This document shows positions 3 to 28,255 of a DNA stretch of 59,482 nucleotides, in pieces. The notes under the pieces were generated by a model that saw only the letters and a list, made by a program, of their open reading frames with translations, ran no database searches and was not told where the DNA came from. The stretch is from an uncultured Gammaproteobacteria bacterium (GTDB lineage: Bacteria; Patescibacteriota; Patescibacteriia; Magasanikbacterales; GWA2-37-8). The stretch is taken from positions 1-59,482 of the forward strand of contig CAYXJO010000009.1 of NCBI GenBank assembly GCA_964465205.1, written 5' to 3'. The position numbers were made by a program, and so were the translations under genes. The stretch's first letter is position 1, and each line of letters begins with the position of its first letter.

Positions 3-407
3 CAGGGGATCGGTGTCCGCTTGCTTTACCACCCAGCCGGCATAACCCTTGACATACATAATGTTCTGCACGAAAAACTGCAGGACTATTTGGAAGAGCG
101 CGATAAATGCGGCATTACGACTCCGTATCTCTGGGTGTCGGATAAAGGCAAAAACAGCCGCCTTGAAAAAAGCGGCTATGACCACTTAATGAAGCGTATC
201 CGCGAAGCTAGCGGAGTGAAATTCCATCCGCACCAATTCCGGCACACATTCGCCGCCAACCTCGCCAACAAAGGCGTAGCCATGCCGACGCTTAAGCAAT
301 TGATGGGGCACAGATCTATGAGTATGACGCTTAAATATCTCCGCTATGTGCCGCAAAAGATGATGGCCGCCGGAATAGAAAAACTTGATTTGGACGATCT
401 GCTTTAA
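3..407 (+). CDS. Tyrosine recombinase, C-terminal catalytic part (frame open to the window edge, 5' partial)
   Basis: HPHQFRHTFA (HxxR), LMGH and TLKYL (catalytic Tyr) motifs; frame 3 has no stop upstream of position 21. Confidence 0.85.
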   Translation, partial: QGIGVRLLYHPAGITLDIHNVLHEKLQDYLEERDKCGITTPYLWVSDKGKNSRLEKSGYDHLMKRIREASGVKFHPHQFRHTFAANLANKGVAMPTLKQLMGHRSMSMTLKYLRYVPQKMMAAGIEKLDLDDLL

Positions 408-1297
408 AGATTGTTTAACGGATGCTTGATTATCTGCGAGCGCAAATGTTCGGCGGTGGCAGACAAATAAATGGTGGTGGTTTTTATGTCGCTATGCCCG
501 AGCATGCGCGAGAGCGAGTAAATATCGCACCCGCCTTCCAAAAGTAAAGTCGCAAAAGTATGCCGCAATTTGTGGAGAGTAAAATCAATGCCGCTTTCCT
601 TTCTCATCTTTTCTGCCAGCCGCTTAATCCCTATATCCCTAAATCCCATATTGCGGTTCATGGAAGTGAAAAACTCGGGGCAGGTTTTATTGAGGCGCTT
701 GCGCTCTCCCAGATATCTCTGCAGACTGTCCGCCAGCCGGTAAGGGATCGGGATGATTCTGTCCTTGCTGCCTTTGCCCTGTCTGACGAACAGCGTCATA
801 TTTTCCAAATCAACATCGGCCAGTTTCAAATTAAGCAGTTCGCGCTTGCGCAATCCGGCAAACAGGAAGGTGGCAAAGATCGCATGGTTGCGGTAGCGCA
901 GGAAATGGTAATCGTAAGGATAATTGTACACCACTTCCAAAAGCCGCAGCGCGTCCTGTTTGGTAAGCTTGGACGGCAGGCGCTTCTCCAAACGCGGCAC
1001 CTCGATGTCCTCAACGAAATTCTCCTGCATGTGTTTATTCTTAATGCACCATCTGAAGAAAACTCCCAGCGTCTTATGGTAAGCGATAAAAGTATTGGCG
1101 GTCCACTGCCTGGCGGTGCGCCCGTAAAAGAACAATTCCTTTACCATGTTGGCGGTAATCTGCATCGTATCGGTAATGCCGGCATGGCGGCTGAAGAAAG
1201 ATATCACTTGCCGGTAGCGACGCAAGGTCATGGGCTTGAGGCCCTTGATGTAGCGCGCGTGGTCGCAAAACTCGCGCAACAATATTTGAATATCCAT
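404..1297 (-). CDS. Tyrosine recombinase/integrase (XerC/XerD-like)
   Basis: Full catalytic set: GLRKREL, GKGSKDR, HKLRHTFA, LGHSD, TTIYL; N-terminal SAM-like domain. Confidence 0.93.
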   Translation of the reverse strand: MDIQILLREFCDHARYIKGLKPMTLRRYRQVISFFSRHAGITDTMQITANMVKELFFYGRTARQWTANTFIAYHKTLGVFFRWCIKNKHMQENFVEDIEVPRLEKRLPSKLTKQDALRLLEVVYNYPYDYHFLRYRNHAIFATFLFAGLRKRELLNLKLADVDLENMTLFVRQGKGSKDRIIPIPYRLADSLQRYLGERKRLNKTCPEFFTSMNRNMGFRDIGIKRLAEKMRKESGIDFTLHKLRHTFATLLLEGGCDIYSLSRMLGHSDIKTTTIYLSATAEHLRSQIIKHPLNNL

Positions 1298-1302
1298 ATA
1301 AC

Positions 1303-1332
1303 AAAAACACTACAATGTATTAGTTGCAGTGT
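1303..1332 (-). terminator. Hairpin with U-tract downstream of tRNA-Thr(UGU)
   Basis: Minus strand ACACUGCAA-CUAAUACA-UUGUAGUGU followed by UUUU. Confidence 0.55.
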
Positions 1333-1339
1333 TCACGAG

Positions 1340-1412
1340 AGCCGGGAACAGGATTCGAACCCGCGACCCGCGCTTTACAAAAGCGCTGCTCTACCAGCTG
1401 AGCTATCCCGGC
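1340..1412 (-). tRNA. tRNA-Thr(UGU), CCA not encoded
   Basis: GCCGGGATAGCTCAGCTGGTAGAGCAGCGCTTTTGTAAAGCGCGGGTCGCGGGTTCGAATCCTGTTCCCGGCT folds as a cloverleaf with anticodon TGT. Confidence 0.96.
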
Positions 1413-1469
1413 TTATGGCGGTAGCGCCTGCCGGACAGCCTGCCAGCGCGCATGGCGCTTACAATCAAG

Positions 1470-1738
1470 AGCCGTTGTCGGGACTTGAACCCGAGACCTA
1501 CTCCTTCGCTTCCACCTCTATTTCTTGTATTAGAGGGCTAGACTGTATCTTGAGCTTGTCCCGCAAGCGGGATTTAGCTCCCCTTGTCAGTCGTTCGGGC
1601 CCGCACACTGCGTGCCACGGTCTTACCCTTTGCAGGGCTTTAACCGTTATTCGGGAGACAGCATTATATTTCTACAATGCCGGGCGGAGATCAATGCGAT
1701 CCACCATGGAGTTGCTCTACCAACTGAGCTACAACGGC
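1470..1738 (-). tRNA. tRNA-Thr(GGU) interrupted by an intron; exons 1703-1738 and 1470-1506
   Basis: Joined exons give GCCGTTGTAGCTCAGTTGGTAGAGCAACTCCATGGT|AAGGAGTAGGTCTCGGGTTCAAGTCCCGACAACGGCT, a perfect 73-nt cloverleaf. Confidence 0.93.
1507..1702 (-). ncRNA. Group I self-splicing intron (196 nt, no ORF) at tRNA position 36/37
   Basis: 5' exon ends in U and intron ends in G. P7 GACUG/CAGUC within R (GAACGACUG) and S (AAGAUACAGUC) motifs; P3 CUCCC/GGGAG; P4 ACGGU/ACCGU; P2, P5, P6, P8 and P9 stems; IGS CUCCGCC. Confidence 0.9.
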
Positions 1739-1900
1739 GTAATTAAATTTGTTAAATTTCTTATGATTGTTTATAAATCTGCTTTAGCCCGCGACCTTAT
1801 TCACGGTAGCCGAGGATGTGTTTCGCTCTGGAACAAGTCCCTTCTTTCGTCTTTTTGGCTTTATTTAAGCCAAACAGGTACCTCGCCCATGCTATGTTCT

Positions 1901-1938
1901 TTACCATGGAGGTGCTCTACCAACTGAGCTACAACGGC
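1901..1938 (-). pseudogene. Orphan 5' half (positions 1-38) of tRNA-Thr(GGU)
   Basis: 37/38 identical to the spliced tRNA (A27>C); no T-arm or acceptor 3' strand follows. Confidence 0.85.
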
Positions 1939-20747: not shown

Positions 20748-20754
20748 AAACTAA

Positions 20755-20860
20755 CTAAAAAATCTGTGTTTCCACAGACCTAAAAGCACAAATCGACTTT
20801 ACGTAAAAACGTTTTGTACCTCGGCAGGAGATTAAGCCTAAGGGCACCTGCTGTCTATGG
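20755..20860 (-). promoter_or_regulatory. L10 ribosomal leader (autoregulatory RNA)
   Basis: AGACAGCAGGUG...CUUAAUCUCCUGCCGAGG core directly upstream of rplJ, then a hairpin near the start codon. Confidence 0.85.
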
Positions 20861-21162
20861 TTAGTGACAGTATATATTATTTAGGGAAATATGTCAAGGG
20901 CTGGCCAAAATTGGGGTTATCCACAGATGTTTTGGCTAGAATTGGCCGTTTTTCAACTAAAAGGCTTGATAGGGACAATGGCTATCGCCTACAACCAAGT
21001 AGAACAGGATATCTGGGGAACGCAGCCAACAAAGCCTATGAGATGGCCATTATGCTCGAAGACGCGGCGAAAAAACTCCGGAAGTTCGCCGGCGAGACTC
21101 TCGCGGGCCAATGTTGGGTGGACGACAATGCCTACCCGCCGGAAACATTTCCGGACTTATGA
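20857..21162 (+). CDS. Possible small hypothetical protein; true start probably internal
   Basis: Protein-like 3' half followed by a terminator; 5' part overlaps the rplJ promoter; competing frame 20891-21172. Confidence 0.3.
   Translation: MVSDSIYYLGKYVKGWPKLGLSTDVLARIGRFSTKRLDRDNGYRLQPSRTGYLGNAANKAYEMAIMLEDAAKKLRKFAGETLAGQCWVDDNAYPPETFPDL
20869..20897 (-). promoter_or_regulatory. rplJ promoter
   Basis: TTGACA-17-TATACT. Confidence 0.75.
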
Positions 21163-28168: not shown

Positions 28169-28255
28169 TGGTGCGCGGGAGAGGATTCGAACCTCCAAGC
28201 CCTTGCGAGCGCTACCACCTCAAGGTAGTGCGTCTACCAATTTCGCCACCCGCGC
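28169..28255 (-). tRNA. tRNA-Leu(GAG) with encoded CCA
   Basis: GCGCGGGTGGCGAAATTGGTAGACGCACTACCTTGAGGTGGTAGCGCTCGCAAGGGCTTGGAGGTTCGAATCCTCTCCCGCGCACCA, long variable arm. Confidence 0.97.

Follow-up and report, generated by a model that had tools for sequence, protein, structure and literature searches.

A predicted self-splicing group I intron of 196 nt in a tRNA-Thr(GGU) gene belongs to a family widespread in Patescibacteria

The small group I introns interrupting tRNA genes of Azoarcus (205 nt) and Anabaena self-splice. The intron at position 36/37 of the tRNA-Ile(CAU) gene of Azoarcus sp. BH72 (Aol6.Ile2.5Ug) is a biochemically and structurally characterised ribozyme with a minimal P1-P9 fold, in which P1 is formed by 3 bp between exon and guide with a U·G pair and P2 carries a GAAA cap, and it has neither an ORF nor large peripheral domains. 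The preprint by Williams (bioRxiv 2020, 10.1101/2020.01.27.920355) extends the four classical classes of bacterial tRNA introns to 21, including Thr.5Ug, represented by the seed Rba53.Thr.5Ug ('ggU|A...UGcc'), as well as Thr.3Ug and Thr.2Ug; two of its seeds, Gba28 at about 193 nt and Wba81 at about 195 nt, are already shorter than the 205-nt Azoarcus intron. Some tRNAs of CPR bacteria carry group I introns and are hard to detect for that reason (Lui et al. 2021, PMC8172020), and the paper on tRNAscan-SE 2.0 describes the program as not designed for tRNAs interrupted by group I introns. In the literature on intron size, we found no usable claim of a "smallest group I intron". Here we analysed a stretch of 59,482 nt (hereafter the window), in which a first-pass annotation had proposed an ultra-compact group I intron splitting a tRNA-Thr(GGU) gene.

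We joined the two exons of this gene, which reads on the minus strand from 1738 to 1470 as GCCGUUGUAGCUCAGUUGGUAGAGCAACUCCAUGGU / 196 nt / AAGGAGUAGGUCUCGGGUUCAAGUCCCGACAACGGCU, and ran ARAGORN on the spliced product, yielding a perfect 73-nt cloverleaf called as tRNA-Thr(ggt). The 5' exon (1703..1738, minus strand) contains the acceptor 5' strand, the D arm, the anticodon stem 5' strand, A32 U33 and the anticodon G34 G35 U36. The 3' exon (1470..1506, minus strand) continues with A37 A38, the anticodon stem 3' strand, the variable loop, the T arm, the acceptor 3' strand and a discriminator U, and the CCA is not encoded. The spliced tRNA has the anticodon loop AUGGUAA and the acceptor pairs G1-C72 and C2-G71, which we take to be threonine identity elements. 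The insert (1507..1702, minus strand; GGAUCG...GGAAGCG) occupies position 36/37, starting with a G at 1702 directly after U36 and ending with the terminal omega-G at 1507, and its boundaries are further supported by the covariation described below. The coordinates, length and ends given by the first-pass annotation were thus right according to exon joining and ARAGORN, and, as it had also stated, no plausible ORF lies inside the intron. Neither ARAGORN at its default settings nor the tRNA model of Rfam picked up the split gene, both reporting only a tRNA-Thr(UGU) and a tRNA-Leu, the interrupted gene reaching 16.8 bits at most against the tRNA model, in line with the earlier expectation that tRNA scanners would miss it.

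The intron belongs to class Thr.5Ug of the 2020 preprint, being located in tRNA-Thr after the fifth anticodon-loop nucleotide, with U at position -1 and G at omega. It resembles the seed Rba53.Thr.5Ug in its host (Thr GGU), its site (36/37), the U at -1, the terminal G and the P1 formed by exon GGU and guide GCC. The two introns differ in their size and core: the Rba53 seed row is 261 nt long, with an Azoarcus-like core (AAAUUCGGGGAAA ... GUAGAGACCA ... GGAUGGUCC) and long P8 and P9, whereas the window intron has 196 nt and the core GAAUAACGGUUAAA ... GAACGACUG ... AAGAUACAGUCU. Closer core motifs are found in two other seeds of that preprint, the CPR-type Mba143.Tyr.4Ug and Pgr210.Thr.2Ug, which resemble the window intron in AUAACGGU (J3/4-P4), ACCGUGG (P4'-P6) and AAGAUAYAGUC (J8/7-P7'), the last of these reading AAGAUACAGUC in the window. 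These seeds and the introns hosted by Tyr, Asn, Asp and Leu tRNAs have the same helix order, lengths of 184-272 nt and mostly Patescibacteria hosts, and differ in being located in other host tRNAs, after nucleotide 35, 34 or 33.

To retrieve relatives, we used a search pattern joining three core motifs (ATAACGGT..ACCGTGG..AAGATAYAGTC). The pattern matched once in the window, against 0.00 matches expected from shuffled sequences, and at 120 loci or more in GTDB species-representative contigs, almost all of them Patescibacteria/CPR MAGs. Host tRNAs were assigned by ARAGORN together with the rule of a U at -1 and a terminal G. In this way, we identified tRNA-Thr(GGU) genes split after nucleotide 36 by a homologous intron in at least 57 other species, again almost all Patescibacteria/CPR, under record titles naming Saccharibacteria, Paceibacterota, Wolfe-, Vogel-, Kaiser-, Yanofsky-, Doudna-, Moran- and Magasanikbacteria, Peribacteria and others. 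Among the matches listed, smaller sets interrupt tRNA-Tyr(GUA), tRNA-Asn(GUU) and tRNA-Asp(GUC) after nucleotide 35 and tRNA-Leu(UAA) after nucleotide 34, and the Thr(GGU) introns range from 176 to 230 nt with a median of 194.5 nt, 31 of the 58 (window included) being shorter than 196 nt. The window intron is an ordinary member of this widespread Patescibacteria family and of a known kind. Both novelty claims of the first-pass annotation fall: the host tRNA and site are covered by Thr.5Ug and its seed Rba53, listed in 2020, and shorter introns occur both in the family and among the published seeds. "Ultra-compact" is accurate relative to the Azoarcus intron and does not hold within the family, whose members go down to 176 nt.

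By their signatures, introns with the common core motifs fall into host-specific lineages (for example L042, L032, L026 and L046 versus L005, L018 and L096). Those in Thr(GGU) after nucleotide 36 have the core GAAC/GACUG/ACAA ... AAGAUACAGUCU (CAGUCU), and those in Tyr, Asn and Asp after nucleotide 35 and in Leu(UAA) after nucleotide 34 have UAGA/GACUA/GAUA ... AAGAUAUAGUCC (UAGUCC). In P7, the Thr lineage differs from its sister lineage by two compensatory changes at the ends and by a bulged C in place of A. Most likely, the intron is old, inherited for the most part vertically and not currently mobile, since it encodes no homing endonuclease, is found at the same syntenic locus in related genomes and is spread over many CPR classes. 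Among the matches listed, the introns closest to that of the window come from non-syntenic CPR, with 78% identity in Portnoybacteria L065 and 74% in L117 (L049 was also compared); those of L028 and L086, the Magasanikbacteria loci with synteny, are only 67% and 64% identical to it, close to the family median of 67%. Differences in evolutionary rate or an occasional exchange of introns could account for such a pattern.

We aligned the 58 Thr(GGU) introns, window included (alignment A1), and mapped onto them the canonical group I structure as read from the window sequence. Over the 58 sequences, the ten helices (P1, P2, P3, P4, P5, P6, P7, P8, P9.0 and P9) were paired at 92.5%, against 29-44% in controls where the 3' partners were slid by 1-3 columns. 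Compensatory double changes were present in 35 of 53 pairs and the covariation score was 0.465 (0.06-0.11 for the slid controls), with none of 500 shuffles attaining these values, counts that are inflated by the relatedness of the sequences and by taking the structure from one aligned sequence. Even allowing for that inflation, the fold exceeds the slid controls by a very wide margin. The invariance of P4, most of P7 and J8/7 carries no independent weight, because the retrieval pattern demanded these segments. The helices follow the order P3-P4-P5-P5'-P4'-P6-P6'-P7-P3'-P8-P8'-P7'-P9, in which P3 and P7 cross to form a pseudoknot. RNAalifold recovered P1, P2, P4, P5, P7, P8 and P9 unaided. Folding of the single sequence gave a minimum free energy of -70.6 kcal/mol (z = -3.7 relative to shuffled sequences) and recovered P2, P4, P5, P7 and P8.

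Covariation in the 58 homologues backs the central proposal of the first-pass annotation, a group I intron at 36/37 of tRNA-Thr(GGU) with P1 (U·G), P2 to P9 and a P7 of GACUG/CAGUC; the elements given below are on the minus strand. P1 (1683..1705) pairs the exon nucleotides G34 G35 U36 (1705..1703) with the guide GCC (1685..1683), placing U36·G at the splice site. This U·G and both G-C pairs are found in 58 of 58 sequences. The helix runs on into the intron with two covarying pairs, 1702-1701 with 1687-1686 (GU 23, AU 22 and GC 10 for one; GC 43 and AU 13 for the other). P2 (1660..1681) is a 9-bp hairpin with compensatory changes at nine of nine pairs and a GAAA tetraloop (1672..1669), a GNAA loop at family level whose G, A and A positions are each conserved in at least 90% of the sequences. 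The 5' strand of P3 (CCC, 1653..1655) pairs with its 3' strand (GGG, 1581..1583; 1583..1581 in pairing order), which crosses P7 in the pseudoknot; P3 is 98.9% paired, with CG to UA changes at all three pairs, and is only 3 bp long across the family. A 5-bp register of P3 (CUCCC/GGGAG) is possible in the window copy, and we rejected it for the family because its 3' positions covary as outer pairs of P8.

The P4 segment (1617..1647) pairs 1647..1642 with 1622..1617 around the A-rich J4/5 and J5/4 and P5; P4 is invariant, which is partly fixed by the pattern. P5 (1638..1625) has a GCAA loop and compensatory changes at four of five pairs. P6 (1598..1616) is a hairpin with a GGC...GCC base and a variable extension, and has compensatory changes at three pairs. 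The P7 5' strand (1588..1594) reads A, a bulged C, then GACUG, its outer A-U being replaced by G-C in two sequences and the rest being invariant. Its G 1592 and C 1541 of the 3' strand presumably form the guanosine-binding pair. This P7 is built of an A-U pair, the bulged C and then G-C and A-U; the published seeds bulge an A, and we infer that the P7 of the window intron is homologous to their G-A-GACUA / UAGUCC. P8 (1552..1580) is a hairpin with the outer helix GAGCU...AGCUC, compensatory at five of five pairs, followed by an internal loop and CCCG-CUUG-CGGG. J8/7 (AAGAUA) and the P7 3' strand (CAGUCU) together span 1540..1551 and match the J8/7-P7' of the seeds Mba143 and Pgr210 (AAGAUAUAGUCC). 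The 5' strand of P9.0 (GC, 1537..1538) pairs with 1509..1508 just before omega-G, so that this 2-bp helix ends 1 nt ahead of the terminal G; it is 99.1% paired (GC 42 and AU 13; CG 33 and UA 21). P9 (1515..1536) is a hairpin (CCUCUA...UAGAGG) with a 10-nt loop and compensatory changes at six of six pairs. All 58 aligned introns end in the G that stands at 1507 in the window. Among these features, the U36·G and exon G-C pairs of P1, the GNAA loop of P2, the placement of P9.0 ahead of the terminal G and the bulged P7 are typical of group I introns. The window copy retains all family-invariant columns and has every helix intact; its own oddities are a two-C bulge in the 3' strand of P1 and GUCUCCC instead of GAAUCCC ahead of P3.

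The one helix of the first-pass annotation that failed is P10, described as CUCC pairing with GGAG of the 3' exon. P10 is weak or dispensable in some group I introns, and its absence does not for that reason exclude group I membership by itself. The pairing can form in the window copy, but its four pairs are kept in only 45, 56, 11 and 24 of the 58 sequences, there is no compensation where the 3' strand of the anticodon stem changes, and none of the three registers that we tried is kept across the family.

Compared with the Azoarcus intron, the window intron has the same site, the 3-bp exon-guide P1 with U·G, the GAAA-capped P2 and the minimal P1-P9 architecture, likewise free of ORFs and of large peripheral domains. 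It is 9 nt shorter, its P3 has 3 bp, its J6/7 and P7 sequences differ, its P5 is without the receptor-like CCUAAG/UAUGG and its L9 is not a GAAA tetraloop.

To assess how visible the intron is to profile methods, we ran the Intron_gpI model of Rfam 15 (RF00028), which gave no match over the whole window at gathering thresholds nor within the 601 bases 1300-1900 at E<=10, so that the RF00028 match put forward as a check in the first-pass annotation was not obtained. At E<=10 the model also found none of 17 related loci (none of 18 members of the Thr lineage with the window), and we therefore read its silence as insensitivity of the model to this lineage and not as absence of the intron. Searches with nhmmer using a 14-seed profile, a 3-seed sub-profile and single published seeds returned no significant match at the intron. 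We then built a covariance model (CM) exclusively on published seeds, taking the P3-to-P7' cores of 13 group I introns from bacterial tRNA genes. With filters off, its top match in the first 6 kb was 1540-1657 on the minus strand, covering the full model, with 16.8 bits and an E-value of about 7e-4; with default filters it did not match the window intron. The same model scored the CPR introns hosted by Tyr, Asn and Asp tRNAs at 70-80 bits, and gave 10-18 bits to the Thr(GGU) relatives or missed them. Membership in group I rests mainly on the covarying fold and on the motifs common to bona fide members, with slight support added by the match of the seed CM.

We consider it very likely that the insert is an ORF-less group I intron located between U36 and A37 of tRNA-Thr(GGU) and that it self-splices, and we infer its catalytic activity from its membership in the family. 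The precursor would fold into a group I core composed of the P4-P6 and P3-P8 domains, with the P3/P7 pseudoknot and with P9.0 placing the terminal G, and the conserved GNAA loop of P2 may serve in tertiary docking. In the first step, an external guanosine bound in P7 would attack the phosphate after U36, marked by the U36·G pair of P1. In the second step, omega-G (1507) would take the same pocket and the 3'-OH of U36 would attack the 3' splice site, joining GGU to AAG (predicted spliced junction CCAUGGUAAGGAG) and yielding a normal tRNA-Thr(GGU).

Three other readings were weighed against standard self-splicing, all of which are less likely. The core could be a true group I fold reduced too far to splice unaided, so that a host protein or unusual ions would be needed in vivo. 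A P3 of 3 bp, the unconserved P10, a plain P5 hairpin with a variable loop and without the CCUAAG/UAUGG receptor of Azoarcus-type seeds, and an L9 that is not GNRA all point in this direction. On the other side, full conservation of the junctions, covariation in P9.0 and the conserved GNAA of L2 suggest that the core is self-sufficient, we identified no gene as a candidate for a cofactor, and the small Azoarcus and Anabaena introns manage without further aid as self-splicing RNAs; we regard dependence on a cofactor as unlikely. It is more improbable still, in our view, that the window copy is a decayed relic that no longer splices and leaves a tRNA pseudogene, with the adjacent tRNA-Thr(UGU) reading the ACN codons. 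That neighbouring gene is intact and lies only 57 nt downstream, and the two-C bulge in P1 and the GUCUCCC ahead of P3 could be taken as signs of decay; against this, both exons are perfect, the helices and the family-invariant columns are retained, and the retention of the interrupted gene by at least 57 other species speaks for function.

The last reading concerns the boundary. When introns were allowed (-i option), ARAGORN recovered the 196-nt insert with an offset of 2 nt and labelled the gene tRNA-Arg(gcg), i(35,196), which would place the insert between nucleotides 34 and 35 of a tRNA-Arg(GCG). With this boundary, position -1 would be G instead of U, the invariant U·G pair of P1 would be destroyed together with the P9.0 helix that ends 1 nt before G 1507, and the acceptor pairs would still be those presumed to specify threonine. 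The same 2-nt offset recurs in many relatives, all of which are uniquely resolved as Thr(GGU)/36 by the rule on the -1 U and the terminal G, and we give the Arg assignment practically no credence. Standard self-splicing from tRNA-Thr(GGU) remains our preferred reading.

The discovery value of this intron is small, as the site has been catalogued since 2020 in the Williams preprint and the family occupies it in at least 57 other species. Its practical value is in annotation: default tRNA finders and Rfam miss the gene, so that genomes of this group seem to be without tRNA-Thr(GGU), and inferences on completeness or codon reading can err as a result. Public group I models cover the Thr lineage poorly, and its natural introns go down to 176 nt, which could interest builders of RNA family models and those seeking minimal ribozymes; if active, its members of 176-190 nt (for instance the 176-nt intron of L073) would be self-splicing group I ribozymes smaller than that of Azoarcus. 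More tentatively, and with the balance of our opinion tilted against it, the tRNA-Thr(GGU) introns of Patescibacteria might form a distinct and largely unannotated group I sub-type that is nearly invisible to public models, set apart by the outer A-U and bulged C of P7, the GACUG/CAGUC stem, a P3 of 3 bp and the lack of a conserved P10.

We then inspected the genomic neighborhood of the split gene. The uninterrupted tRNA-Thr(UGU) downstream of it (1339..1412, minus strand) was called by ARAGORN and Rfam, and the two genes are probably co-transcribed. The 57-nt spacer between them (1413..1469, minus strand) is rich in G+C, and an inverted repeat within it (AGCGCC...GGCGCU) may act as a hairpin for processing; the SAM-IV and YrlA matches to the spacer are weak and look like chance. 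Upstream on the same strand are genes for a TPR protein, triosephosphate isomerase (TIM), an M16 peptidase, a class II aminoacyl-tRNA synthetase and RRF. Just downstream of tRNA-Thr(UGU) is an ORF for a tyrosine recombinase (404..1297, minus strand; Pfam Phage_integrase), for which the best NCBIfam matches are XerA, XerC and XerD, all under cut-offs, and which is 78% identical to a gene at the tRNA cluster of L028 and 54-61% identical to those of L038 and L067. From these likenesses, the recombinase looks like a conserved housekeeping enzyme of the Xer type and not like the integrase of a prophage attached at a tRNA gene. A 455-aa ORF on the opposite strand (560..1927, plus strand) runs antisense through the intron, the two tRNA-Thr genes and the gene for the recombinase; having no Pfam family at E<=0.1, it was treated as almost certainly spurious, although gene callers could pick it and mask the tRNAs. 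Elsewhere in the window, we noted an ordinary ribosomal protein L10 leader (RF00557, 72.5 bits; 20748..20878, minus strand) and a tRNA-Leu(GAG) (28169..28255, minus strand).

For the TPR, TIM and recombinase proteins, identity with the neighbours of the intron locus in L028 and L086, both labelled Magasanikbacteria, is 58-78%, and at these loci the intron interrupts tRNA-Thr(GGU) at the identical site with syntenic flanks. By this synteny, the host is a Patescibacteria (CPR) bacterium, probably related to Magasanikbacteria, and the intron occupies a conserved locus. Introns of the CPR type were also present on several MAG contigs with the title "uncultured Gammaproteobacteria" or "Pedobacter sp." (L005, L027, L036, L038, L051, L056, L064, L076 and L107), which suggests mislabelled or contaminated bins; in L027, the flanking genes are CPR-like as well.
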